From: Candidatus Hydrogenedentota bacterium
GTDB taxonomy: Bacteria; Hydrogenedentota; Hydrogenedentia; Hydrogenedentales; SLHB01
DNA length: 64,000 nt
Assembly (NCBI GenBank): GCA_963745075.1
Contig: CAVUWV010000031.1
Coordinates: 192,001 to 256,000, forward strand
Reading direction: 5' to 3'
Shown here: positions 7,701 through 33,044 of the stretch, piece by piece
How the letters are laid out: every line of letters starts with the position of its first letter
How positions within the stretch are numbered: position 1 is the stretch's first letter
Position numbers and translations under genes: made by a program
Notes under the pieces: generated by a model
Database searches by the model: none
What the model was told of the DNA's origin: nothing
What the model saw: only the letters and a program-made list of their open reading frames with translations

Positions 7701-8045
7701 ACGAAACAGAATCTGAACGGCGCAGCATTGGTCCGCGATTGGTCATCCGCGTTGCACTTCAGCGACAGCAACGTAGGCAGCATGCAGGCGGGTGGATTTC
7801 GATGTCCAGGCCAGGCGGCAGCGATGAAGTATTACTATTACGTGGTGGCCCGCAACCCGTGCTTCGAGAGCGTCCCGAGTTCGGCGGACAGCGGCTACGC
7901 ATCGTCGGCCAAGGGTCTTGGTACGTCTCAGGCGGGGCTCCTGGCTCCTGGAAGCGGCTTGGGTGAATTTCTGCTGTTCCTGGCGGCCTGCCTGGCCGGT
8001 GTCCGTGCGAAAAGGCGCAAACCAGCAGAAAGCGCCGCGAACTGA
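4703..8045 (+). CDS. Large secreted/surface protein: signal peptide, 14 FG-GAP/VCBS repeats, Calx-beta, Ig-like, Fn3-like domain and C-terminal membrane anchor; apparent +1 frameshift near 7340 joins ORFs 4703..7549 and 7374..8045
   Basis: 14x (A/V)WGDYDNDGDLDILL..VYRN; Calx-beta VNDVTLDEGNSGTT...EPDETFHLNL; Ig domain reads TTQPQ/DQDVCAGTDAVFS...QWQ...YRAVFSN after a one-base shift; tail GEFLLFLAACLAGVRAKRRK. Confidence 0.88.
4841..5810 (+). repeat. Near-identical 153-bp (51-aa) coding tandem repeats in the first FG-GAP propeller
   Basis: gcgtggggcgactacgataacgacggggacctggacatcc recurs at 4994, 5147 and 5300 with 153-bp spacing; units 2/3 and 4/5 encode identical peptides. Confidence 0.93.
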
Positions 8046-8299
8046 ATCCCGTTTCCATCGCTCTGTAAAGCGGGCTGCAGGTATCGGCGTCGGGCCGGAC
8101 AAGTTGGGATGTGCGGTCGAGGGCATAGCGCGCATTGTGGGAATATTGCGGCCAGTTTGTAAACTAATGCTCTAATGTTGTGACAGCACCTGCGGTCGCC
8201 TGTACGTTCTATGGTAGGGTCGTTCGGACTATTCCGCGCATTCACAAGTTCGGAATAGCAGTCTTTGGGAAGGTAACACAACCAGTAAGAGGGTATGCC

Positions 8300-8665
8300 A
8301 TGTCTAAACGAAAGTGGTTCGTATTCTTATCCAGCGTGCTTCTTATCGTTCTTTTGCTGGGGTGCCCTATGGACATGTCGTCGTTGGCGGGCGCTTGGAA
8401 AGTGTCGCTCCACTTTGATTGTGACACCGCCACCCAGTCTATATTGGGGATTGTCCTCTATCCCGATGGAACCGCTGAGTTGTACGACGAAGGCGTTTAC
8501 GTTGGCACGTGGTCGTTGAATGGCTCAGTGGTTACGATCACGTTGGTGAGTCCGTCAGCGTATACATTCACAGGGACTGTATCCATGGATGGAGATTCAA
8601 TAATTGACGGGAACTACACCGGCACCTACAGCGGTTGTTGGACCGCCGAGAAGATCAAGTTTTGA
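8300..8665 (+). CDS. Small hypothetical lipoprotein (GCP lipobox), beta-rich; paralog of the next gene
   Basis: MSKRKWFVFLSSVLLIVLLLGCPM signal; shares GAW, DCD, TAEL, GTW..NG and CWTAE with 8702..9073. Confidence 0.75.
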   Translation: MSKRKWFVFLSSVLLIVLLLGCPMDMSSLAGAWKVSLHFDCDTATQSILGIVLYPDGTAELYDEGVYVGTWSLNGSVVTITLVSPSAYTFTGTVSMDGDSIIDGNYTGTYSGCWTAEKIKF

Positions 8666-8701
8666 GGGTGCGCAATTCAGGCAATCTCAGGAGCATGAGA
8701 A

Positions 8702-9073
8702 ATGTTTAAGCGATATGCGGTAATCGTGGCCTCCATGACGCTGTTTTCGGCGATCTTTTCCGGCTGCCCGATGCAGGGCGCCTCAATTGTAGGGGCATGG
8801 GCCATTAATCTCGATGCCGATTGCGACAGTATGGACGTCCAACACTTTATTTTAGTGATTCAAAAGGACAACACGGCCGAGCTCCTTATGGAATTCGACG
8901 CCGAGGGAACTTGGACTTTCAACGGCACGACCGTCAGCCTGTCCTTTCCTGATGTTCAGGGAGCCGAATACGAATTTACGGGTGTTTTGGGGTCACAAAC
9001 CATTACATCGGGCACGTTCACGGTTGACTCCATGGGAACCAACTGTTGGACGGCCGAGCAGCTTGTCTCGTGA
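8702..9073 (+). CDS. Small hypothetical lipoprotein (GCP lipobox), paralog of 8300..8665
   Basis: MFKRYAVIVASMTLFSAIFSGCPM signal, AGGAG RBS, same motif set as the upstream gene. Confidence 0.78.
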   Translation: MFKRYAVIVASMTLFSAIFSGCPMQGASIVGAWAINLDADCDSMDVQHFILVIQKDNTAELLMEFDAEGTWTFNGTTVSLSFPDVQGAEYEFTGVLGSQTITSGTFTVDSMGTNCWTAEQLVS

Positions 9074-9191
9074 TCAGAATCAGGGATACGCCTTCCCGTT
9101 TTCTCGTTTCCTCTGGTAGCGTCGCTTGCCGTTGACGCGCACCCGGTGCGGCTGCGCGAGTCGTGAAGCGCGTCGGACAGAAAACTGAATA

Positions 9192-9424
9192 GTATCCGTC
9201 CGGCGAACCCAGTGGTTGGTGAAGAAGCGAGTACGTGATGGACCGTTGGGACGTGATCAGTTCAGAGTTTTCCAGTGGTCGGGAAAGAGCTCGTGGATGC
9301 GGCGATTAGGGTGTGTGGGGATACGCGCGAGGAGGTCTTGGATATAGGCGAAGGGGTCGAGGTTGTGGCGGCGGGCGCTAGCGATGAGACTGAAATGGAT
9401 CGCGGCGGCGTGGCCACCGCGGTC
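9192..9424 (-). mobile_element. IS66-family remnant: C-terminal ~55 codons of TnpC plus terminal inverted repeat
   Basis: DRGGHAAAIHFSLIASARRHNLDPFAYIQDLLARIPTHPNRRIHELFPDHW matches the IS66 C-terminal pattern (stop at 9257); GTATCCGTCCGGCGAACCC at 9192 resembles IS66-type ends. Confidence 0.82.
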
Positions 9425-9680
9425 GGGGAAATAAAGGGACAGACTACGAATTACCCACTTCTCCGCCGTCTTTCTCCGTCCGTTTGCGTTTCCGGCCTCG
9501 TTTGGCAGGACGCAGGAGGCGACCGAGCAGGTTCTCCAGCTGGACCACAAACTGGCTCCCGCCGCAGGGGCGGCCAGTGCTGGTCTGGCGGCGAATGCGT
9601 TCGATGGCATCGGGATCGTCCTCCACACTAAGCCATCCCGCCCAGTCCTCGATAACGCCGGGCGGGGGCAACTGCTAGTA
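9425..9680 (-). mobile_element. C-terminal fragment of a RAYT transposase with its end motif
   Basis: IEDWAGWL...IERIRRQTSTGRPCGGSQFVVQLENLLGRLLRPAKRGRK resembles RAYT C-termini; the stop codon lies within GGGAAATAAAGGGACAGACTACGAATT (9426-9452), the inverted counterpart of the motif at 2958-2984. Confidence 0.75.
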
Positions 9681-9731
9681 GAGTAGCCGGTCTCGCTGTT
9701 TTGCGCAAGAGGAGATTTAATTGCGGAGTGC

Positions 9732-9847
9732 GGTCCCCGCCTGCGCGAGGATGACGGGCAGGTTGGCACGGGCGAGAGCTTTGGCGGTCCGGGTTGTGGT
9801 GCGGGCTTCCAGCCTGACCTGGTCGCAGGCTGGAAGCCTGCACCACA
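9732..9847. repeat. Two REP-like elements: GTCATCCTCGCGCAGGCGGGGACC (minus, 9732-9755) and the inverted doublet TGTGGTGCGGGCTTCCAGCCTG...CAGGCTGGAAGCCTGCACCACA (9795-9847)
   Basis: Palindromes read directly from the sequence; relatives recur at 37433 and 49776. Confidence 0.8.
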
Positions 9848-9946
9848 CTTCTCGCCTTTGCCTCTTCCGAAGGTTTGGGTACCGTTGGGGGCGCCTGTTC
9901 CACCGATAGTGAGACCTGGCCTCTTTGCACCCAGATCGTTGCAGAA

Positions 9947-9975
9947 TTGACACGTGCGCCGAATCATGGAAGAAT
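9947..9975 (+). promoter_or_regulatory. Putative sigma70 promoter of acs
   Basis: TTGACA-17 bp-AAGAAT, about 100 nt upstream of the acs start. Confidence 0.5.
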
Positions 9976-10077
9976 GTCCGCGATCTGTGTGCGCAAGGTT
10001 TAGGGAATGGTGGCAGTCCTGTGCCCCGACGCGGGGAAACGTTTATGCGCGCAATTCGTAATGGAAGGGAGCATCAC

Positions 10078-14164: not shown

Positions 14165-15373
14165 ATGTCTGCAGAGTCGGGCGCAAAGGGAACCATTACC
14201 TCCCTGTACCGCGCCATTAAGCGGTCCTACACCGAACTCCCGTACCGGTTTTCGCGCAACGCCTGGGGCCCGCCGACGTGGCACTACTATTTTGAAATCA
14301 CGCGCCGCTGCAATCTGCGCTGTAAGATGTGCCAGTACATCGATTGGCTCGAAACGGTTCCCACCCGCGTGCAGGCGGACGGCGAACTGACTACGGAGGA
14401 GTGGCTCAAGGTCGTCGACCAGACGGGACGATTCAGTCTGATTACGTTCACCGGGGGCGAGGTGTTTGTCCGGAAGGATTTTATGCAGATATTCGAGCAT
14501 GCCTGCTCGAAACGACGGGTCCACTTCATTTCCAACGCCACCATGCTGACGGAAGATCGGGCCCGCCGTTGCGTCGAACTGGCGCCGAAGTGGTTTGGCG
14601 GCCGGGGATTTAACTTCGCGGGCGTCTCCATCGATGGAACGCGCGACGTGCATGACGTCATCCGGGCGCAAAAGGGCTCCTTCGATAAGAGCACGAACGG
14701 CATCAAAATGCTGTCACGTTTCCGTGCGGAGGCGGGTAAGAAGAGTCCGCTCATCCACATCAACACGGTAATCCAGGACGAAAGTCTGGATTGCTTGGCC
14801 GAGATGCCGCACATTGCGAAGGAATGCGGGGCAAACGTGTTGAATTTGTTGACCGAAACGCGGATACACGATCTGCCGGAATTGGGCCATGTTGATCCCT
14901 CGAGTTTCAGCCGGGACGATTTCCGGCAACCGCGAATCGACCGCCAACGGTTGGAACAGTCGCTCCGGAGAACGATGGCGGAGGCCGAGAAACTCGGCAT
15001 CGAAGTGCGGATGCCTCGCATGCCGTTCGAGGAAATTGTCAATCACTACGACGAGGGGTACAACCTGCGCGAGTTTGAGTGCCGGTCCATCTGGTCAACA
15101 CTGAGTATCGGTGCCAAAGGTGGCGTGTATCCGTGCTGGATTCAGAAAGTCGGCAACGTGCGCGAGCATTCGTTGAAGGAACTGCGCAACAACGAAATCA
15201 TGCGCGCCTTCCGTCAGAAACGCCGCGAGGGCGGTTTCGCGGTATGCCGGGGCTGTTGCGAAATCGAGTATCGAGGGAAAGTCAACGACGCGGAGCCGGC
15301 CCTTACGCCTTCGCCCCTACCGACGACCGAGGACTCCGAGCAACCCAATGAAGAGAGCGTAGTGGCGAAATAG
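14165..15373 (+). CDS. Radical SAM protein with SPASM/twitch domain
   Basis: CNLRCKMC, FTGGE, VSIDG...HD..R; C-terminal CRSIW...GGVYPC...GNV...CRGCC. Confidence 0.92.
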   Translation: MSAESGAKGTITSLYRAIKRSYTELPYRFSRNAWGPPTWHYYFEITRRCNLRCKMCQYIDWLETVPTRVQADGELTTEEWLKVVDQTGRFSLITFTGGEVFVRKDFMQIFEHACSKRRVHFISNATMLTEDRARRCVELAPKWFGGRGFNFAGVSIDGTRDVHDVIRAQKGSFDKSTNGIKMLSRFRAEAGKKSPLIHINTVIQDESLDCLAEMPHIAKECGANVLNLLTETRIHDLPELGHVDPSSFSRDDFRQPRIDRQRLEQSLRRTMAEAEKLGIEVRMPRMPFEEIVNHYDEGYNLREFECRSIWSTLSIGAKGGVYPCWIQKVGNVREHSLKELRNNEIMRAFRQKRREGGFAVCRGCCEIEYRGKVNDAEPALTPSPLPTTEDSEQPNEESVVAK

Positions 15374-17997: not shown

Positions 17998-20352
17998 TCA
18001 GTAGTGGCGTGCCGCGCCATACCAGTTGCTGCTGCCGTGATCGAGGTGCAACACGGGAACGCCGCTCAGCCGCGTTTCAGGCCCGAAGGTCTCCCGCATG
18101 TCCTTCCCGAATTTCCAGTCGGCCCCTTCGAAGTGGTGCATTTCTTCGTATTGCACTTTCTCCAGGCATTGCCGCCGCACGCACTGGCAATAGCCGACGG
18201 GCACCCCGTCAGCTTCGCGCATGCGATACTCGCCCGCTGACGCGAGCAACTCTTCCCACTGGTCCCAGGGACGAACTTCGCCCAACAGGATGCGCGCCGT
18301 CGTTTCGCGGCCCAGCATCTTGCGGCCGTCGGGAATGGTGAACATGCAATCGTCCGGCAGTTCCGCCATGCGGGCGAGCATATCGGGCGCAAGCAGCACG
18401 TCCGCATCCAGAACGAGCACCCAATCGCCGCGGGCTTTGCCGAGGCATTCATTGAGGAGAAGCCCCTTGGTTCGTGCGTGCTCTTCGGCAAAGGCGGTGG
18501 GAACGATCTGAAGATTGGGGTGGGCGAGCCCGATGCTGTCGAGCACGTCTTCCGTGGCATCGAGCCCCGGAACGAAGGCGACAATGACTTCGACCTCGTG
18601 GAGGTCGATGTTCCGTTGGTGGGCGAGATTCTCCAGACAGGCCTGGAGCCGCCGCGCGTAGCGGGTACTGACCACGACCACGGAGAACCGGATGTTGGCG
18701 GATTCCGATTGCGCTACCGGTTCGCCTTCCCAAAGGTACACGGCCTGCGTGCCGATGGTGCCGTCGATATTCCAAATCGAGATGCGCGGTTCCAGCCCTT
18801 TCCCCAAGCGGGCGGGGGCGTAGTACGAGCCGACAAACTGGACGGGCGCGACGGGCTGCCCATCGCGGAGCAGGACGTAATGTCCGGCCGCGTCGACGTG
18901 CAGAACAACGCGATGACTGAACGCGGTCATCGGACAGACCAATCGGCATCCTTTGCCCAAAGCAAAGCCCACGTACTCGGCGATTCCACCGCCGAACGTT
19001 ACGGAAAGGGTGAACGGCGGGTTCAGACGTGCGAGGGGCGTGCTGATTTTTTCCGTATTGGAAAACGAAAACCAGCGCAAACAGCCCGGCAAGGCCCAGC
19101 TCCAAGTGCCTTCCACGCGATAGTCAAAGGCGCCGATTTCGCGGTCGGGAGGACGGTTCATGGTTACCGCGTTGGCCGAACCGACCAATGAATCCAATTC
19201 CGAACGTTCGCGGCGGGCGGAGTCTATCGTGTCGTAATGGCGAGGCCGCTCCGCTGCGAAATGAAACGGATCCACTACCGGTTCGCCATCTTGGGCCGTA
19301 ATTCCGATACCGGGGAGCGACCGCTTCAGTTCCGCGGTCAGACCATCGCAGATGCGGCGCAGACTGCATGCGGCGCAGATCGGCCCCTTGGCCTGACGAC
19401 GAAGTTCGGCACCGTTTTCCGCGGCCAGCGAATGTGCCGCCGGCGAGGGATCGGGGGCCGCCTCCGGGGTGCGCCGGCGACGGTGGCGCGTCAGCTTGTG
19501 CCAGGCCCATATGCGGGCACGCACCCAGGGGTGGTCCATGATCCATGGCAACAGAATCCGGTCGATGGGATTGCCCGTTGACGTGGTCAGATCCAACTGC
19601 ATCAGGACTGCCAATCGAATGCGGCTCACGGGTTTGCCGTACAACTTCCGAGCCAGTTCGTAGGAATCGCGTTGATAATGCTGATAATCGCGGAAGAATT
19701 GTGGGGTGTTGACGACCAGTTTGCGGTTCTGTTCCGTCACGACGCAGAACGGCAATCCGATCACGTTCGTCTCCATCCCCCGGTCATGGCACGCCGCGGC
19801 CAGGGAATTCATGCGTTCGATGGACGATTCCGTGTGCCGGGCGTTCCGCGCCGGCGGATTCTGCGTGAACGGGTCGTAGGCGGCTACATGCACGACGGCT
19901 ACATGCGCGTCGACAAGGCGTTGTGCGATGTCGTTCACGTCCAGATCGGTTTCGAAGGGGCCCGTAAGTTGAACCCGAACGGCGCACCCGGCCTCCTTGG
20001 CCGCCGTCAGCCACTCGCCGAAATACACGGCGTGCGGGTGAGGCGGGCCCAGGAGCAGATCCCAGGGCTCGGCATCAAGCAGTTTCTGTGCGGTCGGTGG
20101 CGGGCCGGCGCAGTCGGTGCGAAGGCTCAGTTCGACGTCGAGATGCCGGGCCGCTGGCTTCAACGCCTCGAACCGGGTCAAATCGCTGCCGTGCCACAGC
20201 ACGTCGATCTTGTCCGTCTTGAAAACGACACGGTTCAGCCGCATCCAGCGTTCCAAGTCTACGGTGGATACCGGCCGCCCTTTCACGTTCTGTGCGAGGA
20301 TCAGACCGCGCACGGGGGCTAAGGGGTCAATCCTGTCTGTAGGTGTCGCCAC
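17998..20352 (-). CDS. Fusion protein: N-terminal degenerate radical-SAM-like region (no CxxxCxxC) with PFC and CxxCx5C, central beta-rich domain, C-terminal GT2 glycosyltransferase; paralog A
   Basis: GT2: FSVVVV...EVIVA...LNECLGKARGDWVLVLDADV...HLDH. N-half: LSLRTD, NVIGLPFC, KGPICAACSLRRICDG. Collinear with 20380..22737. Confidence 0.8.
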   Translation of the reverse strand: MATPTDRIDPLAPVRGLILAQNVKGRPVSTVDLERWMRLNRVVFKTDKIDVLWHGSDLTRFEALKPAARHLDVELSLRTDCAGPPPTAQKLLDAEPWDLLLGPPHPHAVYFGEWLTAAKEAGCAVRVQLTGPFETDLDVNDIAQRLVDAHVAVVHVAAYDPFTQNPPARNARHTESSIERMNSLAAACHDRGMETNVIGLPFCVVTEQNRKLVVNTPQFFRDYQHYQRDSYELARKLYGKPVSRIRLAVLMQLDLTTSTGNPIDRILLPWIMDHPWVRARIWAWHKLTRHRRRRTPEAAPDPSPAAHSLAAENGAELRRQAKGPICAACSLRRICDGLTAELKRSLPGIGITAQDGEPVVDPFHFAAERPRHYDTIDSARRERSELDSLVGSANAVTMNRPPDREIGAFDYRVEGTWSWALPGCLRWFSFSNTEKISTPLARLNPPFTLSVTFGGGIAEYVGFALGKGCRLVCPMTAFSHRVVLHVDAAGHYVLLRDGQPVAPVQFVGSYYAPARLGKGLEPRISIWNIDGTIGTQAVYLWEGEPVAQSESANIRFSVVVVSTRYARRLQACLENLAHQRNIDLHEVEVIVAFVPGLDATEDVLDSIGLAHPNLQIVPTAFAEEHARTKGLLLNECLGKARGDWVLVLDADVLLAPDMLARMAELPDDCMFTIPDGRKMLGRETTARILLGEVRPWDQWEELLASAGEYRMREADGVPVGYCQCVRRQCLEKVQYEEMHHFEGADWKFGKDMRETFGPETRLSGVPVLHLDHGSSNWYGAARHY

Positions 20353-20379
20353 GATACCGCGTCCCTGTTTCGTATGTTA

Positions 20380-22737
20380 TCAAAAGTGTTTGGTCGTTCC
20401 GTACCATTGGCTGCCGCCGTGATCGAGGTGGAGGACCGGCAGGCCGCTGAGGCGGGTCTCCTTGCCGTACTTGTCCTGCAACGCCATGCCGAACCACATG
20501 TCCGCTCCTTCGAAGTGGTCAAGTTCGGCGTATTTGATCTTATCCATGAACTCGCGCTTGAAGCATTGGAAGAATCCGACTGGGACGCCCTTCGCCTCGC
20601 GGTAACGGTATTCGGAAGCGCCGTTGACCAGCTCCTGCCATTGCCCCCACGGTTCGACTTCCCCCATCAGGACGCGTGCCGTCGTTTCTTTGCTGAGCAT
20701 GAGCCGGCCGTCGGGTGCGATGAAGTCACTCTCGTCCGCGATGGCTTCGACGCGGGCGAAGGTGTCGGGCGCGATAACGATGTCCGCATCCATGAGGACG
20801 ATCCAGTCGCCGGACGCCATGAGCGCCGACTCGTTGATCATGAAGCCTTTCGAGTTCGCGTTCTGCGCGGGGAACGGTGACCGGAGGATCCGCAAGTCCG
20901 GGTACGTCTGTGTCATGCTGTCGATGAGGTCGTCCGTCGCGTCGAGTCCCGGGATGTAGGCCACGATAACCTCGATCTTCTTGAGATCGATGTTCTCCTG
21001 ATGGGCGATGCCGCGCAGCATGGCCTGAAGCCGCCGGGCGTACCGGGAATTCACAACGATGATGGAATATTTCACATCAGCGGGGGGCGCGTCGCTGATT
21101 TGCTCGCCACGCCATATCTTCACAAACTGAGTCACGATCTGAGCGTCGATATTCCAGATGGAAATGCGGGGGTCGAGCCGGCCCCCGAGGCGCAGCGGCA
21201 CGTAGAACATCCCCTCGAATTCGACCGGGCGAACGGGCGTGCCGTCTCGCAGCAGGACAAAGTGTCCGTCGTGGTCGACATGCAAGACCAGCGTGTGACG
21301 ATACCCTTCCATGGGGCAGAGCAACTTGCAGTGGCGGCCGAAACTGAAGCCGATGAATTCGGCGATTCCGCCTCCGAAGGTCACCGAAATGGTAAACGGC
21401 GGCTCGACGTATTCGAGCGGGGAACTGAGCTTTTCCGTATTTGTAATGGAGTGCCAGCGCACGCCGCCTTCCAGATGCTCCCATGGGGCGCCTTCGACGG
21501 TGTATTCATAAGGCATGATCTGCCGGTCGGGTGTTCGGTTTTCCACGAGTGCGGCGGCTTCTTTGGCAAGGGCGGCATGACCTTCATTTACCGCCATACG
21601 CTCGGTGTCCACGGCATCGTAGTGTTTCGGCTGGTTCAGCGCGAAGTGCATGGGCGAGACGACGAGTTCACCCTCGACCGCCTTCAAGGACAAACCGGGC
21701 AGCAGACCGCGCACCTCGGGCGATAGGTGATCGCAAATGCGCCGCAGACTGCACTCCGCACAGATCGGTCCCAAGACCTGCCGTTCATGGGCATGGAGCT
21801 TTTCCACGTTCTTCTGGTGAGCCTCGAGCGTGGGGGCAGTCGTTTTCGGCTTTCCGATACGATTGCGCAAGTGTCGCGTCAGCTTGTGCAGCGCGGCGGC
21901 TCCACCGTGCACCAGCCGGTAGTGAAGCAGAAGGCGTAGAATGACGGCATCGACAAAGGTGCGCTGGAAGGTCGATCGCGCCAACAGGATGAGTAGAATC
22001 TTGCCCACCGCCGCAGGAACGTTGCGATACAACGACACGCCGAGTTCGTAAGCGCCCTTGTTGTATTGCTGGTGATCCATAAAGAACTGTCGCGTATTCG
22101 CAAGGTGGGGCCAGAGCGACTCCTCGACCACGCAGAAAGGAACGTGGTGGACATTCACCTCGATGCCGTCGGCGGTTAATGCCGTGGCCAATGCCGCCAT
22201 TCCGGCGACGCTGGCGGTGGTTTCTTCCTTGCCTCGGGTTGCTCGAATCTTTTCGAAGGGATCGTATGCGGTGATGGTAACGGCCGCTGCATTTCGGGAC
22301 AGCAGAAGTTCCGCAAGCGGTTTGGGATCGTAGCCTTTCGCGAACGGGCCGCAGACTTGGACACGGCACGGAATCTCGGCGGTGTTGCAGGCGTCGAGCC
22401 ACGCCGTCAAGGGCTCGAGTGACATACCTGATACCGACACGAATACATCAAGCAGACCCGCCTCCCGATACGCAGACAGGTCCGGAACCGGCGCATCTCC
22501 ATCAACACGCAAACTCACGCGAAGATCCAGATCCGCACCGTGTTCTATCAACTCCGGCAAATGGCGTAGCGTGGATGCATTCGCCAAGATATCGACTTTT
22601 TCCGCGTTGTAGACGATTCGGTTCAACCGCATCCATCGTTTGAGATCGATGAGATTGAACGGCTTTCCCCACCGGTTATGGGTGGGGACAATGCCACGAA
22701 CGGGAGGGATTCGCTGTGCTTCAACGGAGGGCGGCAC
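20380..22737 (-). CDS. Same fusion architecture; paralog B
   Basis: YSIIVV...INESALMASGDWIVLMDADI...HLDH; NVHHVPFC, GPICAECSLRRICDH; shares RWMRLNR, AYDPF, HKLTRH, VTFGGGIAE and PRISIWNID with paralog A. Confidence 0.8.
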   Translation of the reverse strand: MPPSVEAQRIPPVRGIVPTHNRWGKPFNLIDLKRWMRLNRIVYNAEKVDILANASTLRHLPELIEHGADLDLRVSLRVDGDAPVPDLSAYREAGLLDVFVSVSGMSLEPLTAWLDACNTAEIPCRVQVCGPFAKGYDPKPLAELLLSRNAAAVTITAYDPFEKIRATRGKEETTASVAGMAALATALTADGIEVNVHHVPFCVVEESLWPHLANTRQFFMDHQQYNKGAYELGVSLYRNVPAAVGKILLILLARSTFQRTFVDAVILRLLLHYRLVHGGAAALHKLTRHLRNRIGKPKTTAPTLEAHQKNVEKLHAHERQVLGPICAECSLRRICDHLSPEVRGLLPGLSLKAVEGELVVSPMHFALNQPKHYDAVDTERMAVNEGHAALAKEAAALVENRTPDRQIMPYEYTVEGAPWEHLEGGVRWHSITNTEKLSSPLEYVEPPFTISVTFGGGIAEFIGFSFGRHCKLLCPMEGYRHTLVLHVDHDGHFVLLRDGTPVRPVEFEGMFYVPLRLGGRLDPRISIWNIDAQIVTQFVKIWRGEQISDAPPADVKYSIIVVNSRYARRLQAMLRGIAHQENIDLKKIEVIVAYIPGLDATDDLIDSMTQTYPDLRILRSPFPAQNANSKGFMINESALMASGDWIVLMDADIVIAPDTFARVEAIADESDFIAPDGRLMLSKETTARVLMGEVEPWGQWQELVNGASEYRYREAKGVPVGFFQCFKREFMDKIKYAELDHFEGADMWFGMALQDKYGKETRLSGLPVLHLDHGGSQWYGTTKHF

Positions 22738-22852
22738 GAATCATTACCGCGCGACGGTCTCGCCGGGACGGTGCCCTGCGGCCGCGCATGGGTATGGGTT
22801 TGAATACGTTACGTGTGTCACCGGCAAAGAATACCGTTTAGGAGCGGAGCAG

Positions 22853-24076
22853 TCAAAGGGCCGGTTGTACGTCGGGCTGTTTGAGTGGAGCGGTCTGGGC
22901 GAGAATCCAATACGTGAGCAGCCGCAGGGCGCACAGCAGGAACAGGGTCATACGGATACCGACGCCGTTTTCCACAAAGTAGGAAGACAACAGCATCAGG
23001 CAGAGAACCATCAGGACGCGCCCAATGGCCAGCGGTATCTCCCAAGCACAGAGGTATTCAATGCGCTGGCTGGGGTCGAGGGCGCTGTTGGCAATGATTT
23101 CCATGCGGAGGCTGAAATGACCGATCCCAAACATGGACATCGACAGGGACCGAATCAGACCGAAGGCGATCAGCGTGAGCGCGGTAATCTTCGCAAAAAA
23201 CAGGAAGCCGCCGGCAAAGAGAATGACCGATGCCAGGAACATATAGCGCCCGCGGGTTTGCGGACGCATTACGCGCCCCAGGAACGTCGAAACGCCGATC
23301 GCCACAAGGGCCTGGTACGAAGCGAATCCCCCGACACTGACTTCGTTGTTGGTCTCGAAGTACATGAGAAGGCCCAACAAAATGCTGAAGATGTGGAACG
23401 ATCCCGCCAACGAGACGGACGCAAGCATGACGTGCTGCCAGTCGCGTTGATCGCGGCCGGGAAAGAGCGCGCGGCGAATTCGGAAGGGCCGTCGTTCTTT
23501 GTCCTCCGGCAAGCGGTAACTGAGAAAGAAGGCAACGATGTAGAGGACCAGCACCAAGGTGAAAAGCCGTTGGTATCCCCGCAAGGGATCGGCCGACATA
23601 CGGATAATCAGTCCGCCAATGGGCGGTGCGGCAAGCCGGGCCAGGTTCGTGACCGCGCCCAGCAGTCCGTAAAAGAGTTCCCGGCGTCCGTGTGTAGTCA
23701 CGTCGTAATTGATGGTGTTGGCGCCGCCCCAGTAGGCGCCCCAGGTCACCCCGAGCAAGGCGCCCAGCGCAACGGCGTGATCGGGGGCCTGCTCCTGGAG
23801 GGTCAGCAACGCTCCGTAGTACACGGCGTGGAGAATCAGCCCCAAACGGTACACGTGAAGGCGGTCACGGACCTGCGAATACCAGCCCGCAAGAACGAAG
23901 AAGAACGGCGTAACCACAAACAGGGCTATGTAATAGCGGCAGATAAGGTCGAGGTCGTGACTATTGATCCACAGGTAGACCGTGACGAAAATGGAACACA
24001 GGGCCTCAGCGGCGCTATAAAGTCCTGTCAGCACGAAGGCTACGGTTGCTTTGGGGTGTAGTTTTGAGTCCGTCAT
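22853..24076 (-). CDS. MFS-type transporter
   Basis: 407 aa, about 12 hydrophobic segments, LAAPPIGGLII motif. Confidence 0.8.
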   Translation of the reverse strand: MTDSKLHPKATVAFVLTGLYSAAEALCSIFVTVYLWINSHDLDLICRYYIALFVVTPFFFVLAGWYSQVRDRLHVYRLGLILHAVYYGALLTLQEQAPDHAVALGALLGVTWGAYWGGANTINYDVTTHGRRELFYGLLGAVTNLARLAAPPIGGLIIRMSADPLRGYQRLFTLVLVLYIVAFFLSYRLPEDKERRPFRIRRALFPGRDQRDWQHVMLASVSLAGSFHIFSILLGLLMYFETNNEVSVGGFASYQALVAIGVSTFLGRVMRPQTRGRYMFLASVILFAGGFLFFAKITALTLIAFGLIRSLSMSMFGIGHFSLRMEIIANSALDPSQRIEYLCAWEIPLAIGRVLMVLCLMLLSSYFVENGVGIRMTLFLLCALRLLTYWILAQTAPLKQPDVQPAL

Positions 24077-25490: not shown

Positions 25491-26459
25491 ATGTTTCGTA
25501 ACTTCACCATTTCGTACGCCCGCAAGAATATTCGCATGCGGAACGTCCGCAAGCTCTCGTTTCAGCGACAGAGCGTCGCCTACTTGTTGTCGATTTCGGC
25601 GCGTAAGATACCCCACGCCGCGGGCAACGTGGAATTCGACGTGACGCCGCTTCACGAATACGGCCAACGGGTCATTCAAGAGATGAAAGCGACGGGGGGC
25701 AAACATACCCCGGACGAACTGACGTGGATGGCCGTCCACAAGAATTTCTCGGCGTTTTACCTCAAGACCATCGCCCACGTGCTCTATCATATTCCGGTGA
25801 TGAATTCGCTGATGGATTGGACGCCGTTGCGAAACGGCGGACACCTGTACGAATGTGAAGATATTTGCCCCTCGTTTACGGTCCATACGAAGCAGGGCGT
25901 CATGGCGCCGATCATCCGGAATCCGCACCAGAAGACGCTCGTAGAGGTGGCCAACGAGATGCGGGTCCTGACCCGGAAGTCGCGGCGCACCGACATGAAT
26001 GAGTTGTATCGGCGGTGCGCGCGCCGGTACTTGACCTATGCGCTGCGCGAACTGGACTTTTCCGGATTCACCGCGGGCTGGCTCTGGGTCAAGTCATGTC
26101 TCTGGCCGGAACCCATGTCAGACGAGGTGAAAAACGTGCCCGAAGACGAGAAGCTGCTCGCCAAGGACGTGGTTGGCTCGACCTGCACGGTGGCCAATAT
26201 CGGCATGTCGGTGGACGGATGGCAGACGGTGACGGTGATCCCGCCGCCGAGCACGTTTATGTGGGGGATCGGACTTACCCGGCAGCTCCCGCGGGTCATC
26301 GATGGCCAAATCGTTCCGCGCCATATCGTGACGGTGGCGGTGACCTTCGACCATCGGGCAATGGACGGCGGGGACATTTTTGACTTCGTGGACGTCATGA
26401 ACGGTTACATCAAAAATCCCGAGCGGATATTCGAGTGGAAGCCCGGCGATCCGGTTTAA
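25491..26459 (+). CDS. Stand-alone 2-oxoacid dehydrogenase E2-type acyltransferase catalytic domain (no lipoyl domain)
   Basis: IPHA..NVEFDVT, GVMAPIIRN, STCTVANIG, VTFDHRAMDG (catalytic HxxxDG). Confidence 0.85.
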   Translation: MFRNFTISYARKNIRMRNVRKLSFQRQSVAYLLSISARKIPHAAGNVEFDVTPLHEYGQRVIQEMKATGGKHTPDELTWMAVHKNFSAFYLKTIAHVLYHIPVMNSLMDWTPLRNGGHLYECEDICPSFTVHTKQGVMAPIIRNPHQKTLVEVANEMRVLTRKSRRTDMNELYRRCARRYLTYALRELDFSGFTAGWLWVKSCLWPEPMSDEVKNVPEDEKLLAKDVVGSTCTVANIGMSVDGWQTVTVIPPPSTFMWGIGLTRQLPRVIDGQIVPRHIVTVAVTFDHRAMDGGDIFDFVDVMNGYIKNPERIFEWKPGDPV

Positions 26460-27388
26460 CGGTCGCGGTCTTTCGCTTCGCGTTCGCTCCATTCCGCGGC
26501 CAGACGCGGCCGTTCTTTCCACCGCCGATGCAGCCATAGCCATTGTTCCGGACTCTTGCGAATCTCAGCTTCGATGTGGTCCTGGCAGCGCTGGGTGATG
26601 CCGACCAGATCGTGTCGCAGATTTCCGGTGCGGGTCAACTCCATCGGCGGGGAAAACGTGAGGGCGTAGTTTCCGGAAACGTGGCGGCGCATGGTCACCA
26701 CGTAAATGGGCACCTTGGCACGGACCGCCACCATCGCGGGCGCGACGGTCGCCCAGCAGGGCGTATCGAAAAACGTCACCGGCACCGCCGCCTCCCGGGG
26801 ACTTTGGTCGACCAGGACGCCGACGAGCCACCCATCCTTCAGCAGACGCATGATGTCCGCGCCGGAACCTTCCTTTTCGATGGTCCGGACACCTTGAGCC
26901 GTGCGGGTGCCGTCTACGAACCGATTCAGCCTCGGGTCATCCAGGGGCCGGACGACCTCGGCGACCTGAAAACCGATGGCGGTGAGGGCCGGGGCCATCC
27001 ACTCCCAGTTTCCCATGTGTGCGCTGATAAGAAATGCGCCCTCCCCCTTCTTGACATCCTCCAGACCCGAGAACGACACAAACGACGCGATCGACGCAGC
27101 GCTCAGCCTTGGAATCCGCGAGAATTCCGCCGCGACGATCCCGACGTTTTCGGCCGCGCCGCGCGCGATGCGGCGTTTTTCCCGGGCGGTGAGGACGTGT
27201 CCGTAGGCGGCTTCCAGGTTTTGCAGCGTCACCTTACGCACCCTTGGCACCAGGAGATATGCGAGGCGACCCGCGATTCGCCCAAGGGAACGGGCGAGCG
27301 GCAATGGAATACGTGCGGTGAGATGACCAAATAGCAGGGACAGTGAAGTCGCAGTCCATACGACGACAGGATTACGGCGCCGCGGCAT
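26456..27388 (-). CDS. Lipid A lauroyl/palmitoleoyl (LpxL/HtrB family) lysophospholipid acyltransferase
   Basis: SAHMGNWE, VLVDQ, VTFF, PEQWLWLHRRWK. Confidence 0.92.
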   Translation of the reverse strand: MPRRRNPVVVWTATSLSLLFGHLTARIPLPLARSLGRIAGRLAYLLVPRVRKVTLQNLEAAYGHVLTAREKRRIARGAAENVGIVAAEFSRIPRLSAASIASFVSFSGLEDVKKGEGAFLISAHMGNWEWMAPALTAIGFQVAEVVRPLDDPRLNRFVDGTRTAQGVRTIEKEGSGADIMRLLKDGWLVGVLVDQSPREAAVPVTFFDTPCWATVAPAMVAVRAKVPIYVVTMRRHVSGNYALTFSPPMELTRTGNLRHDLVGITQRCQDHIEAEIRKSPEQWLWLHRRWKERPRLAAEWSEREAKDRDR

Positions 27389-28929: not shown

Positions 28930-29916
28930 ATGGCAACGCTGACATTGGCAATTTGTGCCCGAAATGCCGACTCCATCATCGGCGATTGCCTGGCCAGCAT
29001 CGAAACCCAAACGGTTGCGCCGGACGATATCCTGGTGGCCGTGGACGATTGGTCCGACCCCACGGCGGAGGTGGCCCGCAGCCATGGCGCGCGCGTCATT
29101 GCGAGTAACGCGACGGGATTGTACGAAGCGAGAAACAGCGTGCTCGATGCGTGCACCACCGACTATCTGGCCTTTACAGATGCAGACTGTGCGCTGGTCC
29201 CGGAATGGGTCGAATCGGTGAAGGCGGTGCTCGATACGCGGCCGGACGTTGCCGCGGGGACGGGACGGCATCCTCCTGCTGAAGCCCGCAACTTCGCCGC
29301 GTGGCTGCATCACATGTGGTTCATTGTTGAGACCGAGTCCACCGGTGAGACCACGGGGATTATTGGCGGCAACAGCTATTTTCGCACGCAAGCGCTCCGC
29401 GACGTGGGCGGTTGGCTCAAGCTCCCGCGCCACAGTGCGGCGGAGGACGTCTACATCGCTACCGCGCTACGTAAAGCGGGGCACACAATTTGGTTCGAGG
29501 AACGGGCGGCCGTCCGGCATCGCTACGAGACGCGGCTCCGGGGGCTCATGCGAAAGGCGGTGATGATGGGCAAGGACATCGTCGTCATGATGCGAGCCGC
29601 GGGATGGCGCGAAAGCCTTTGGTATTACACGCTGAGCATTCCCATCCTGGCGGGCTTGGTTCCGTTGGGGCTGATCGTCGCGATAGTCGCGCCGTGGCCG
29701 GGCCTGTCCGTCGCCGCGGCGCCGCTCATCCTGACGCTCGGGTATTTGACCGCAAAGTTTGGCAGCCTCGCGATGGCGTTTCCGCGTTGGCTGGCGCGGT
29801 GGTGCGTCATCTGGCCGTACTCCTGGGGGATCCTAAGGGGGTTGGTCACGCCGATTCCCGCATCGGCCCGCATTCGACTGGACGGAGGCGCCGGGCGGAC
29901 GGCGTCGGCACCGTAA
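28930..29916 (+). CDS. Family 2 glycosyltransferase with C-terminal membrane segments
   Basis: VDDWSD, ARN, FTDADC, AAED; hydrophobic C-terminus. Confidence 0.88.
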   Translation: MATLTLAICARNADSIIGDCLASIETQTVAPDDILVAVDDWSDPTAEVARSHGARVIASNATGLYEARNSVLDACTTDYLAFTDADCALVPEWVESVKAVLDTRPDVAAGTGRHPPAEARNFAAWLHHMWFIVETESTGETTGIIGGNSYFRTQALRDVGGWLKLPRHSAAEDVYIATALRKAGHTIWFEERAAVRHRYETRLRGLMRKAVMMGKDIVVMMRAAGWRESLWYYTLSIPILAGLVPLGLIVAIVAPWPGLSVAAAPLILTLGYLTAKFGSLAMAFPRWLARWCVIWPYSWGILRGLVTPIPASARIRLDGGAGRTASAP

Positions 29917-29925
29917 CAGCACTCC

Positions 29926-30429
29926 ATGGACCACGAACGACCAGCAGAACCTGCACCCATTAAAATCTGTCTGACGTGTTCGCACGGAGGCCATCTCACG
30001 GAGATGCTCCAACTGGAAGATGCGTTCGCCGATCATGAAACCTTTTACTTCTGCTACGACGCCGATACCACGCGGCGCCTGCCGAACGCCTATCGCGTTC
30101 CCAACATGGCGCGCAATCCCATCGAATTCGTGAAAAACCTCTGGCGAGTGGTTGGCATATTCCGTAAAGAAAGGCCGGATCTCGTCGTGTCCACCGGTGC
30201 GGAGATTGCTATTCCCGTGGTGCTCGTCGCAAAGGTGTTTCGCGTGCCCGCGTTGTATGTCGAATGCGGCGCGCAAGTCACGACGCCTTCCGTGACGGGC
30301 CGGGTCATGTACTGGCTGGCGGAGCGCTTCTACGTGCAATGGCCGGAGTTATTGGAGGCGTACGGGCCGCGCGCGCGGTTCGACGGCAGTCTGATCGACG
30401 AGGATCGTCCGGTGGAGTCATCGCGATGA
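29926..30429 (+). CDS. Alg14/PssD/CpsF-like glycosyltransferase subunit
   Basis: CSHGGHL, RPDLVVSTGAEIA, YVEC, FYVQW. Confidence 0.9.
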   Translation: MDHERPAEPAPIKICLTCSHGGHLTEMLQLEDAFADHETFYFCYDADTTRRLPNAYRVPNMARNPIEFVKNLWRVVGIFRKERPDLVVSTGAEIAIPVVLVAKVFRVPALYVECGAQVTTPSVTGRVMYWLAERFYVQWPELLEAYGPRARFDGSLIDEDRPVESSR

Positions 30430-30926
30430 TCTATGCAACGGTTGGCACCATGTTCCTGGACTTTCCGCGACTGATCCTGGCGATGGACGCGATTGCACGG
30501 GATACGGGAGAGCGGGTTGTCGTTCAACGAGGGATGGGACAAACGATTCCCTCGCACTGCGATCACTTCGAATTCAAGCCGCGCGACGAGGTGCTTGCGC
30601 TGCAACACGAGGCCCGTGTGGTGGTGTGCCACGCGGGTATCGGGTGCGTATCCGATGCCTTGACGATCAAGCGGCCGCTCATCGTGGTGCCCCGATTGAA
30701 GCGCTACAAGGAACACATGAACGACCACCAGCTCGATCTGGCACGAGCGGTCGAGCGGCGCGGGTGGGGACGAATGGTTTTGGATACCCAGGACCTGCCC
30801 GGCGCGTGCGCGGCGCCGCCGGACGCGTACACGACCTATGCGCCGGCGCGCGAACGGTTGATCAATGCGGTACGATGGATGGTGGACGAGGTCGCCCGGC
30901 GCAAAGCGGAGCGCGCAGGCCGATGA
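30426..30926 (+). CDS. Alg13/PssE/CpsG-like glycosyltransferase subunit (GT28 C-terminal)
   Basis: MIYATVGT..FPRL, VCHAGIG, VVPR...EHMNDHQ; ATGA overlap with the upstream gene. Confidence 0.9.
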   Translation: MIYATVGTMFLDFPRLILAMDAIARDTGERVVVQRGMGQTIPSHCDHFEFKPRDEVLALQHEARVVVCHAGIGCVSDALTIKRPLIVVPRLKRYKEHMNDHQLDLARAVERRGWGRMVLDTQDLPGACAAPPDAYTTYAPARERLINAVRWMVDEVARRKAERAGR

Positions 30927-31942
30927 GTTATGGCCAACGGCTCAAGCCGCCATCAAAAACCGGGCTCGCGTCGATCGTTGTACCCGCGCATAATGCCGAG
31001 GCGACGTTGGAACGGTGCCTGACGGCCTGCCTTCATCAGACGTATGGGACGATCGAAGTTATCGTCGTAGATGACGGTTCGACGGACGATACGGCTCGTA
31101 TCGCGCAATCCTTTCCCGTAGAATGCCTTTCACAAACACAACGAGGGCCAGCGGCGGCGCGCAACGCGGGCGCCCGGCACGCTCGCGGCGATGTCCTCGT
31201 CTTCACGGATTCCGATTGTGTTCCGCATGCGGATTGGGTGGAGCAGCTCCTTTCGGGATTTGAGGATGGTGCAGCGGCCGTGGGTGGAACCTACAGTACC
31301 GCAAACCCCGAATCGCTGTTGGCACGACTGATTCACGAGGAGATCATGGTTCGACACGATCGGTATGACGCGGAGGTCGATTTCCTGGGATCGTTCAATG
31401 TGGCGTATCGCCGCTGCGCATTCGAAAAGGCGGGCGGATTCGACGAAGACTTCCGCATGGCGTCTGGTGAAGACAACGACTTGGCATATCGCCTGGCCGA
31501 CGCGGGCGAGCGCCTTCGATTCGTGCGGGAGGCCGTCGTGAAGCATCATCATCCCGATCGACTGATTCCGTACTTGCGAAGTCAGATGCGGCATGGCTTC
31601 TGGCGCATGAAGCTGTATGCGAAACATCCCCGCCGGTCGGGCGGTGACCGGTATGCCGGGCTCTCCGACCTGCTGGCGCCGGCACTTCTTTGCCTGCTGG
31701 CGGTCACAGTGGCGCTGGGCTTGCTGGTTGGCTTTCAGACGCGGGTTGCGCCCGCGCTTCTATTCCTTTTCAGCGTGCTTCTCCTTTCGCGATTTCCGGT
31801 TCCGTTGCGCATGATGCGCCGGGCGCGCGATCCGCGTATGCTGACCTTCGTGCCAATCATGCTCTTGCGCGACGGCGCACGCGCAGCCGGCATGATCCAC
31901 GGCATTTGGACGTTCCTGATTCTCAGAAGGAAAACCGCTTGA
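30923..31942 (+). CDS. Family 2 glycosyltransferase with C-terminal membrane segments
   Basis: SIVVPAHN, VVDDGSTD, GPAAARN, FTDSDC, GGFDE...GED. Confidence 0.92.
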   Translation: MSYGQRLKPPSKTGLASIVVPAHNAEATLERCLTACLHQTYGTIEVIVVDDGSTDDTARIAQSFPVECLSQTQRGPAAARNAGARHARGDVLVFTDSDCVPHADWVEQLLSGFEDGAAAVGGTYSTANPESLLARLIHEEIMVRHDRYDAEVDFLGSFNVAYRRCAFEKAGGFDEDFRMASGEDNDLAYRLADAGERLRFVREAVVKHHHPDRLIPYLRSQMRHGFWRMKLYAKHPRRSGGDRYAGLSDLLAPALLCLLAVTVALGLLVGFQTRVAPALLFLFSVLLLSRFPVPLRMMRRARDPRMLTFVPIMLLRDGARAAGMIHGIWTFLILRRKTA

Positions 31943-32661
31943 TGCCGCGCGTACTCGTCATTATCCCGGCATACAACGAAGAGGAAACGATCGGGGACGT
32001 GATCGCCGCTCTCGAGGACCAGAAGCCGGAATATGATGTTTTGGTCATCGATGACGGATCGACGGATCGAACGGCCCAAACGGTGCGTTCGGCGGGGCAT
32101 GCGCGTCTGGTTCGGCTGCCGTACAATCTTGGCATCGGCGGCGCCATGCAGACCGGGTTCAAGTACGCAAAGCGGTACGGTTACAACGTCGCCGTGCAAT
32201 GTGATGCCGACGGTCAGCATCCGGTGGAACAGATTCCCTCGCTTGTGGAACGGTTGTCGAAAGGCGATGCCGATCTCGTAATCGGTTCGCGGTACGTGGC
32301 GGACAGCAACTACGCACCGTCTTTCAGCCGCCGCGTAGGCAAATCGATCCTTTCGAGGCTGGTTGACGCGCTCATCGGTGGCGGCATTACGGATACGACC
32401 AGTGGATTTCGGGCGGCAAACCGAAAGGCCCTCGGCGTATTCGCAGAGCGCTATCCCGACGACTATCCCGAGGCGGAAGCCCTGGTGATTCTGCATATGT
32501 CGGGGTTGAAAGCGGTGGAGGTGCCCGCGGGCATGCATCCCCGAAAGGGGGGTGTTACGTCGATCAAGCCTCCGCATGCCGTGTATTACATGGTTAAAGT
32601 CGGATTGGCGATCTTCGTCGATCTGTTTCGAAAGCATTCGCAAGCGACGGGAGAACCCTGA
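31942..32661 (+). CDS. Family 2 glycosyltransferase, DPM1/polyprenol-phosphate-sugar synthase-like
   Basis: IIPAYNEE, IDDGSTD, NLGIGGAMQTG, CDADGQH, IGSR, DTTSGFR. Confidence 0.93.
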   Translation: MPRVLVIIPAYNEEETIGDVIAALEDQKPEYDVLVIDDGSTDRTAQTVRSAGHARLVRLPYNLGIGGAMQTGFKYAKRYGYNVAVQCDADGQHPVEQIPSLVERLSKGDADLVIGSRYVADSNYAPSFSRRVGKSILSRLVDALIGGGITDTTSGFRAANRKALGVFAERYPDDYPEAEALVILHMSGLKAVEVPAGMHPRKGGVTSIKPPHAVYYMVKVGLAIFVDLFRKHSQATGEP

Positions 32662-32663
32662 TT

Positions 32664-33044
32664 ATGGACGGCTACGTACAAACCGGGATACAAACGGCGC
32701 ACCGGGTGGGCATTCTGGCACTCAGCTTTGCTTTGTTGCTCGTTGTGCTCGAACTGGTGCGGCGCGGCTACCTGAAGGAGCGATATGCTTTGCTGTGGTT
32801 GGCGACAGCGGGGCTGAGCCTGGTGATCGGCTTATTCCCGAGTATCATCACGGAACTCGCACATCTATTTAATTTCCAGTACCTTACCGTGCTGTTCGCC
32901 ATGTATTTCGCCTTCACGCTCGCGCTCGTACTCTGTTTTACGATCGTCATATCCCGGCTGGCCGAGCGAAACCGCGAGCTGACCCAAGAAGTTGCCCTGT
33001 TGGCGTATGAGGTGGATCGGTTGAAAACGGGGGTGGGTCAATAA
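32664..33044 (+). CDS. DUF2304-like small membrane protein
   Basis: ELVRRGYLKERYALLW, three TM segments, C-terminal LTQEVALL; usual position after a DPM1-like GT2. Confidence 0.85.
   Translation: MDGYVQTGIQTAHRVGILALSFALLLVVLELVRRGYLKERYALLWLATAGLSLVIGLFPSIITELAHLFNFQYLTVLFAMYFAFTLALVLCFTIVISRLAERNRELTQEVALLAYEVDRLKTGVGQ

Follow-up and report, generated by a model that had tools for sequence, protein, structure and literature searches.

Organization of the gene pair

The 64,000-nucleotide stretch of a Candidatus Hydrogenedentota genome analysed here (the window, G000:C31:192001-256000) carries on its reverse strand two collinear genes, 27 bp apart, for the paralogous fusion proteins P0001 and P0002 (these and similar numbers, such as P0123, are labels for proteins in the analysis). 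Each protein combines an N-terminal half derived from the radical S-adenosylmethionine (SAM) superfamily, a central β-sandwich of the kind seen in carbohydrate-binding modules (CBMs) and a C-terminal family 2 glycosyltransferase (GT2) domain (Table 1). The two are 45% identical (350 of 783 residues). An earlier note, made from the letters of this DNA, had described two collinear paralogs of 784 and 785 amino acids (aa) with a set of common motifs, and these are in place: DAD, HLDH, VTFGGGIAE, PRISIWNID, PFC and CxxCSLRRIC, the last followed by Asp, occur in both proteins. The absence of CxxxCxxC, which it had also reported, is borne out by both translations. In the database, P0002 is called at 750 aa; alignments of its homologs begin at residue 1-10, in support of the GTG start at 22737. 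Pfam finds the GT2 domain alone in both proteins (approximately residues 556-738), and NCBIfam gives weak glycosyltransferase (GT) matches that are all below cut-off.

Table 1. The gene pair, its domains and associated features (window coordinates; residue numbers refer to the protein named).
Feature	Position	Strand	Description or basis
P0002 (upstream paralog)	20380..22737	-	785 aa; pseudo-radical-SAM domain, CBM-like β-sandwich, GT2
P0001 (downstream paralog)	17998..20352	-	784 aa; architecture as P0002
P0002 pseudo-radical-SAM domain, residues 9-380	21598..22713	-	hhalign to intact family, residue map, predicted secondary structure
P0001 pseudo-radical-SAM domain, residues 10-380	19213..20325	-	with C203, C326, C329, C335
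P0002 C202 (PFC motif)	22132..22134	-	C264 of the intact paralog; alignment, residue map
P0002 C326-x2-C329-x5-C335	21733..21762	-	C382/C385/C391 of the intact paralog; with C202, putative auxiliary metal site
P0002 CBM/lectin-like β-sandwich, residues 401-545	21103..21537	-	fold match; confined to this architecture
P0001 CBM/lectin-like β-sandwich, residues 400-544	18721..19155	-	alignment to P0002, profile
P0002 GT-A/GT2 domain, residues 553-785	20383..21081	-	Pfam, fold match; D650-x-D652, H741, D746, H770-x-D772-H773, W778
P0001 GT-A/GT2 domain, residues 552-784	18001..18699	-	Pfam, alignment
Candidate sigma-70-like promoter, TTGACT-17-TATTCT	22828..22856	-	~90 bp ahead of P0002

The architecture is not a chance one, because a protein search returned 140 homologs at E ≤ 0.001. 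Most of the named homologs are from Hydrogenedentota, some are recorded as Nitrospiraceae or FCB group, and among the fusion loci described below one each is labelled Rhodothermaeota and Bathyarchaeia. Our alignment of 120 sequences consists of P0001, P0002 and 118 of the 120 listed matches (of the 140). When a profile of the middle domain was run against 109 genomes of the window's phylum with completeness of at least 85%, the fusion was found in 100 of them (81 of the 86 high-quality genomes), with no match in the two phylum genomes outside the window's order. Against 1.84 billion representatives the same profile matched 71 proteins, 55 of which are at least 600 aa long and contain both the middle and GT domains (hereafter the full-length representatives), the rest being shorter pieces or two weak repeat matches. 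Within the family, P0296, P0297, P0301, P0302 and P0304 form a distant clade in which the N-domain is shrunken or eroded, and one distant, eroded member, among four proteins looked up, comes from Oligoflexia. Viral contigs gave one weak GT-only match; plasmids gave no match at 1e-20 and generic radical SAM matches at 1e-6.

The N-terminal half derives from a radical SAM barrel

A profile of residues 10-375, run against the whole genome, identified besides the pair itself a single open reading frame (ORF), P0123 on contig C8 (E 8e-19). P0123 is a protein of 439 aa that contains CNLRCYFC and scores 76.7 bits against PF04055 (Radical_SAM; cut-off 29.5). In an hhalign comparison of 117 fusions (three fragments left out) with 91 intact proteins (P0123 and 90 of 120 listed matches), the N-terminal half of the fusion matched the intact family along residues 1-378 with a probability of 99.3 and an E value of 3e-20, and this match supports the proposal in the earlier note that the region is a radical SAM barrel without SAM cleavage.

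A residue map between the two families delineates what has been lost and what has been kept. The SAM-cluster loop of the intact paralog, G43-Q-T-C-x3-C-x2-C-Y-F, is deleted in the fusion. GGE and the downstream SAM-contact motifs are named motifs of radical SAM enzymes; QGGEPT, N123-G124 (the NG of TNG) and S147, H149 and G150 of the intact paralog all fall in variable or changed fusion columns, and SLHG is gone. Kept residues, with fusion numbering in brackets, are R37 (R14), D92 (D49), D143 (D97), R183 (R125), E255 (E193) and N257 (N195), together with N212 (N154), which is the family consensus and is Thr in P0002. P262, C264, N276, Q279, D283, C382, C385, C391 and D392 of the intact paralog are also kept, and R77 of the fusion is new relative to the parent, which has I121 at this position. 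Strand alternation in the predicted secondary structure would place the kept polar residues facing the barrel cavity.

The N-domain of P0002 is laid out as an alternating β/α barrel to approximately residue 240, a helical insert (residues 241-320) and a Cys-containing region (residues 321-380). The AlphaFold2 model of the whole protein has a predicted local distance difference test (pLDDT) score of 86.4, and six alternating strand-helix units are predicted in the N-domain; the insert, which is hydrophobic and basic, falls below 70 over residues ~250-300. As a lead, the nearest named ESM Atlas clusters for this domain are Radical_SAM, at 0.89. Fold searches with the whole model were uninformative on the N-domain, as GT-A matches filled the lists and no radical SAM chain was among the matches shown, and a fusion profile run against the sequences of solved structures gave GT matches only, bar one at chance level.

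CxxxCxxC occurs in none of the 55 full-length representatives and in 1 of 120 aligned homologs, where it lies at residue 341, outside the SAM-cluster position. All 55 representatives retain an N-terminal region, and a ring of six residues, R14/D49/S75/R77/D97/R125, is complete in 73 of 84 locus proteins (the 86 that passed a score filter, minus two truncated at the N terminus). No protein joining an intact SAM motif to the lectin-like domain was found; four proteins carry an intact domain, the search having covered lengths of 806-2300 aa and skipped 770-805 aa, which makes this weak evidence, and none of the four bears the lectin-like or GT subfamily of the fusion. By profile and motif, the fusion is a descendant of the radical SAM superfamily that lacks the signature of an active member, and the loss of SAM cleavage in its barrel is supported.

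The four-cysteine site

The auxiliary Cys positions of the intact paralog persist in most close homologs of the pair, with C202, C326, C329 and C335 present in 117, 113, 119 and 113 of the 120 aligned sequences. The earlier note had read PxC followed by a terminal CxxCx5C(G) as an auxiliary metal-site pattern that the fusions kept. The pattern is indeed found in the pair, but the Gly is not part of it: the terminal motif of the fusion is CxxCx5CD, and most fusions lack the Gly that comes next in the CDG of the intact paralogs. Retention of the site, though common in close homologs, is likewise incomplete across the family. All four Cys are found in 72 of the 84 locus proteins, the other 12 keeping two or fewer, and the six-residue ring is complete in 10 of these 12. 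CxxCx5C is missing from 18 of the 55 full-length representatives, which corresponds to six changes on a FastTree tree, at least three of them forced by well-supported branches. Retention does not vary with the presence of the intact paralog (3.53 versus 3.48 of 4 Cys), in a comparison that is suggestive only because its genomes are partly related or incomplete. In the intact parent family, the four Cys are near-invariant. Because the site has been lost repeatedly, an essential sensor role is unlikely, and an inherited auxiliary metal site that is mostly structural, and dispensable in some lineages, fits the alignments better.

The β-sandwich and glycosyltransferase domains

Residues 376-548, when folded alone (pLDDT 90.3), yield a helix followed by a lectin-like β-sandwich, which gives a fold to the region that had been described as a central β-rich domain. 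The fold resembles CBM86 (6sgf; Z 10.9, root-mean-square deviation (rmsd) 2.6 over 115 residues) and CBM66 (4b1m; Z 9.7, rmsd 2.8 over 121) at 11-12% identity, with many lectin-like folds scoring nearly alike. ESM Atlas leads are also of the lectin-like/CBM kind (0.88), and Pfam had no match for the domain in 30 fragments. The model suggests that the β-sandwich binds sugar.

The C-terminal GT2 assignment is secure: PF00535 scores 36.7 and 31.2 bits (cut-off 23.3) and PF13641 scores 45.8 and 40.6 bits (cut-off 27), and the domain superposes on TarS (5tze) as a GT-A fold with Z 20.9 and an rmsd of 2.4 over 191 residues. A DxD motif is found in 55 of 55 representatives. D650, D652, D746, H770 and H773 are invariant in the homolog alignment and may serve in catalysis. 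All eight residues of the set D650, D652, H741, D746, H770, D772, H773 and W778 are present in 82 of the 84 locus proteins, the other two being truncated, and both paralogs are therefore predicted to be active glycosyltransferases. No strong transmembrane stretch was found in the fusion proteins (maximum 19-residue hydropathy 1.48).

An intact paralog and genes for glycan export near the fusion at some loci

We examined neighbours within 8 kb at 77 genome loci, obtained from the best 80 of 141 fusion matches, with clustering of ORFs of at least 120 aa. A GT4 family recurs in 32 of these loci and a small protein in 28; wzm and a long wzt are found in 12 each. Nine loci have the intact paralog near the fusion, directly upstream of it in 8, and other radical SAM/SPASM families also recur. 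The full order wzm-wzt-radical SAM-fusion-GT4-GT4-small protein is seen at locus L058. In the genome of the window, P0123 (L001:9959-11275, -) lies behind wzm and wzt, all three on one strand of contig C8, and the fusion pair lies elsewhere. The intact paralog is present in 57 of the 72 genomes behind the fusion loci (five loci, being second loci of the same assemblies, were left out) and in 68 of the 109 phylum genomes; among the 66 genomes that have both genes, it is directly upstream of the fusion in 25.

The family of P0123 is strongly conserved, with 91 members aligned at 63% identity or more. In metagenome contigs (78 loci, from the best 80 of 314), a Pfam-confirmed GT2 gene lies near the parent family in 35 loci (Pfam confirmed 47 of the 49 ORFs clustered as GT2), and ABC-2, flippase, WavE, nucleotidyltransferase, epimerase and methyltransferase genes are also found. 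The intact domain itself takes part in other fusions (P0311-P0314), where its partners are an unrelated GT2 (P0313), a methyltransferase, an ATP-grasp domain and an unannotated region that looks GT-B-like by eye. The parent is most likely a glycan-tailoring radical SAM enzyme, because GT2 and export genes are its neighbours and it has GT2 fusions of its own.

Three other products of these loci have features of their own. The Wzt ATPase (L001:11422-13824, -, contig C8; also at L013, L015, L023, L035, L058 and others) bears a C-terminal extension of ~450 aa. The extension contains an internal repeat (best E 5e-10 when 12 sequences were tested), reaches no Pfam cut-off and is a candidate tandem glycan-recognition module. 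A conserved insert with four Cys marks the GT4 family beside the fusion (L017:10296-11525, L058:10371-12838 and 30 other loci), which has no clear ortholog in the genome of the window (best 97 bits). The small protein of ~155 aa encoded after the GT4 genes (L058:12838-13320 and 27 other loci) has no Pfam match and was not found in this genome.

Copy number and the age of the duplication

The 100 phylum genomes with the fusion contain one copy in 63 cases, two in 36 and three in 1, and the tandem pair is found in 10. The duplication is an old one by the tree, because copies from different genomes group by position, upstream ones in one set of well-supported clades and downstream ones in another; support is weak at the deep nodes, and the tree shows neither a common nor a separate origin for the two tandem-pair groups. 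A comparison of 11 upstream-type with 8 downstream-type proteins gives 49 fixed differences. Of these, 23 are in the GT domain, a count that is inflated in so far as fixed differences accumulate more easily in conserved domains; 11 of the 23 are in residues 722-757 around D746. This clustering in the GT domain around D746 favours two acceptors or linkages rather than an obligate heterodimer. The earlier note had suggested either a heterodimer or two sequential steps. As a rule for the family, an obligate heterodimer is ruled out by the single-copy genomes, although the pair of this lineage may form one; two steps, with different acceptors, fit better.

Other genes of the window

The sigma-70-like promoter ahead of P0002 (Table 1) comes from a scan whose count is at the level of chance (2 found, 2.1 expected). 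Because TTGACT-17-TAT(T/G)CT is conserved there in 5 of the 6 upstream regions that were aligned (the sixth one starts after the -35 box), the pair probably has its own transcript. Its immediate neighbours encode an MFS transporter, a CYTH protein, an epimerase and a PfkB kinase and recur in the closest relatives only. A radical SAM/SPASM gene with an intact motif lies 2.6 kb from the pair (14165-15373, +). It was set aside as a partner, being on the opposite strand and only 21-25% identical to the radical SAM families that flank the fusion elsewhere.

Further along, a separate glycosyltransferase cluster (28930-33044, +) comprises three GT2 genes, an Alg14-like gene and DUF2304. A gene at 25491-26459 (+) encodes a stand-alone catalytic domain of a 2-oxoacid dehydrogenase acyltransferase with no lipoyl domain match; it is convergent with a lipid A acyltransferase gene (26456-27388) and is kept in three close relatives. 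At 9257-9967 there is a frame whose C terminus looks transposase-like by eye and which we take to be of the IS66 type; G+C content falls to 0.56 in 8001-10000.

Comparison with known systems

Modular glycosyltransferases linked to wzm-wzt, with a C-terminal extension on Wzt, are known from the O-polysaccharide enzymes of Klebsiella (WbbB and ORF6 of O7). In these systems the Wzt extension is a CBM that reads the chain end, and GT domains are fused through a coiled coil to a terminating GT or a methyltransferase (PMC11231755). The fusion differs in that its partner is a dead radical SAM barrel with a lectin-like domain, and in that the Wzt extension is ~450 aa long with an internal repeat.

HxsC (TIGR03977) is the best NCBIfam match of the intact paralog (residues 38-272) and has, like it, a second Cys site besides the SAM cluster. 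PMC13128918 assigns HxsC to the HXS defence system, with C342 and C345 as part of the second cluster. The intact paralog scores 63.4 bits against a cut-off of 267.9. Fusion fragments score 13.0 and 13.8 bits in 2 of 30 cases, around the PxC region, and P0001 and P0002 have no HxsC match in NCBIfam. No HxsB above cut-off was found in the genome (best 61.5 versus 370 bits; the genome is 89.7% complete), and HxsD had no match in the genome nor in 14 control genomes. HxsC matures a protein, whereas the intact paralog family sits in glycan loci and the fusion is without the SAM cluster motif. Of the likeness to HxsC that had been suggested, what stands is that HxsC is the nearest NCBIfam relative of the intact family; the score is far below cut-off, and the context is one of glycan export rather than protein maturation.

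Pseudo-SAM/SPASM proteins of TIGR04347 and of TIGR04150, the latter labelled 'pseudo-rSAM', also represent radical-SAM-like proteins near an intact radical SAM gene. Unlike the fusion, they are stand-alone, peptide-linked and without a GT partner, and neither family matched P0001 or P0002, nor any of 30 fragments at E ≤ 0.1. TIGR04150 is found beside intact radical SAM genes (PMC4573289). One protein annotated as TIGR04347 (P0315, L158:4884-6101) keeps a full CxxxCxxC, which weakens this family as a precedent for the deleted SAM loop.

The top Foldseek match of the whole model is the galactofuranosyl polymerase GlfT2 (PDB 4fix, 9nj1; E 3e-11), over ~440 columns, longer than the GT-A domain alone. 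GlfT2 has a β-sandwich ahead of its GT-A domain. The TM-score is 0.2, the rmsd exceeds 20 and identity is 11-12%; the GT-A domain superposes with Z 14.1, compared with 20.9 for TarS, and GlfT2 contains no radical SAM-derived domain.

That the architecture belongs to no described family, as had been surmised, agrees with these comparisons: it is in neither Pfam nor NCBIfam, with 0 of 30 N-terminal fragments reaching a cut-off. A literature search, whose coverage did not extend to supplements with tables that could list the family, returned no description of a dead radical SAM domain joined to lectin-like and GT2 domains. We regard it as an undescribed architecture within a known kind of pathway.

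A proposed function for the fusion

The explanation we prefer, and to which we would give about an even chance, is that the fusion is a GT2 for a surface glycan exported by Wzm/Wzt, in which the dead barrel and the lectin-like domain hold or check the acceptor. Each protein would be a cytoplasmic, metal-dependent enzyme that transfers a sugar onto the growing surface glycan, which the Wzm/Wzt ATP-binding cassette (ABC) transporter then exports. The adjacency of intact gene and fusion across several families points to an origin by tandem duplication of a glycan-tailoring radical SAM gene, whose downstream copy may then have fused to a lectin-like and GT2 unit and lost the SAM-cluster loop. By retaining a polar cavity lining, the dead barrel could bind the same sugar or glycan end that is the target of the active paralog, so that barrel and lectin-like domain would together hold or check the acceptor, with the four-Cys site an inherited, mostly structural auxiliary metal site. 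The two copies in the window would be old, specialised paralogs, most likely serving two different linkages or steps, and in this genome the pair would have moved away from the wzm-wzt-radical SAM operon on contig C8 and come to have its own promoter.

Several observations weigh against this explanation. Mean column conservation is lower in the barrel (0.47) than in the lectin-like (0.60) and GT (0.65) domains, and in distant members, P0302 and P0304 among them, the barrel has undergone heavy erosion; the polar residues that are kept could instead form a structural salt-bridge ring. Several CBM families lie within ~1-2 Z units of one another, with 75 chains at Z of at least 8, and the fold alone is no proof of sugar binding. 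The wzm gene is adjacent in just 12 of the 77 loci, and not in this window. Whole families have the fusion with the intact paralog not found (0 of 10 in f7, 0 of 14 in f9), such that the job of the fusion is not tied to the paralog everywhere, although some loci of these families bear other radical SAM genes. In favour of the explanation, proteins from genomes that gave no intact paralog retain fewer of the barrel positions (4.65 versus 6.36 of 8; 17 versus 67 proteins), a comparison that is suggestive only, as related genomes enter it as if independent and some assemblies are incomplete. A prediction of the complex between the intact paralog (residues 25-439) and the pseudo-domain (6-385) scored 0.00, which is no evidence either way.

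The preferred explanation shares the glycan pathway and the dead barrel with three of its rivals, and they diverge on the job of the barrel. It might be a docking or assembly module for the intact paralog, other radical SAM neighbours, the second copy or the membrane, a proposal we consider unlikely though deserving of attention: docking would seat a tailoring enzyme next to a glycosyltransferase, the intact gene is often directly upstream, a position occupied at further loci by other radical SAM families, O-antigen assembly enzymes are described in PMC11231755 as forming complexes on a membrane-associated scaffold protein, and the hydrophobic, basic insert at residues 241-320 is modelled with low confidence. 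Yet 34 of the 100 genomes that keep the fusion gave no intact paralog, most genomes have one copy, and the best-kept residues appear to face the cavity rather than the surface. Somewhat less probable is a slowly decaying relic, retained as a packing surface for the lectin-like and GT domains, with no ligand and no partner. Repeated loss of the four-Cys site and the low conservation of the barrel are what such decay would leave, as is its reduction to ~220-250 residues in P0301, P0302 and P0304, where the lectin-like and GT domains are kept; a ring that is complete in most locus proteins and includes the new R77, and an N-terminal region kept in every full-length representative, are hard to reconcile with it.

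The four Cys might alternatively hold an iron-sulfur cluster that acts as a redox or oxygen sensor for the GT, or as a relay of electrons for re-reduction of the active paralog. We think this improbable. Its attractions are the presence of the site in most locus proteins, its near-invariance in the parent family, an auxiliary cluster of PapB that mediates electron transfer between protein molecules (PMC10470005) and a second cluster of HxsC that matters for function (PMC13128918); the repeated losses and a retention that does not follow the intact paralog tell against it, and zinc is equally plausible. Least credible of all is a system that glycosylates a peptide, protein or small molecule in the manner of HxsC-like or glycocin-like systems, with no exported glycan. 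It would account for a parent whose best NCBIfam match is a protein maturase and for the peptide glycosyltransferase SunS among the weak matches, but the HxsC score and the HxsB search offer it little, the neighbours, as clustered from ORFs of at least 120 aa, are wzm, wzt, GT2 and GT4, and a family found in 100 of 109 genomes is more in keeping with an envelope function than with a natural-product cluster.

A bolder elaboration, and a doubtful one, is that the dead barrel reads a mark made by a radical SAM enzyme: it would bind the sugar modified by the paralog, the GT2 would extend or cap the chain only then, and the four-Cys cluster would pass electrons to the paralog. If true, a radical SAM pseudoenzyme would act across an entire phylum as a quality checkpoint of envelope glycan synthesis, and this would indicate a class of radical SAM enzymes, not yet characterised, that tailor glycans.

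Standard annotation reads these proteins as 'glycosyltransferase' only and overlooks two thirds of each. The intact parent family is a target for new radical chemistry on sugars, and the natural pairing of an active radical SAM enzyme with a dead copy of the same operon, for which losses and retentions can be mapped residue by residue, provides a model for the non-catalytic reuse of this fold. As a near-core gene, the fusion marks a shared cell-surface glycan pathway in a phylum whose envelope is poorly described.

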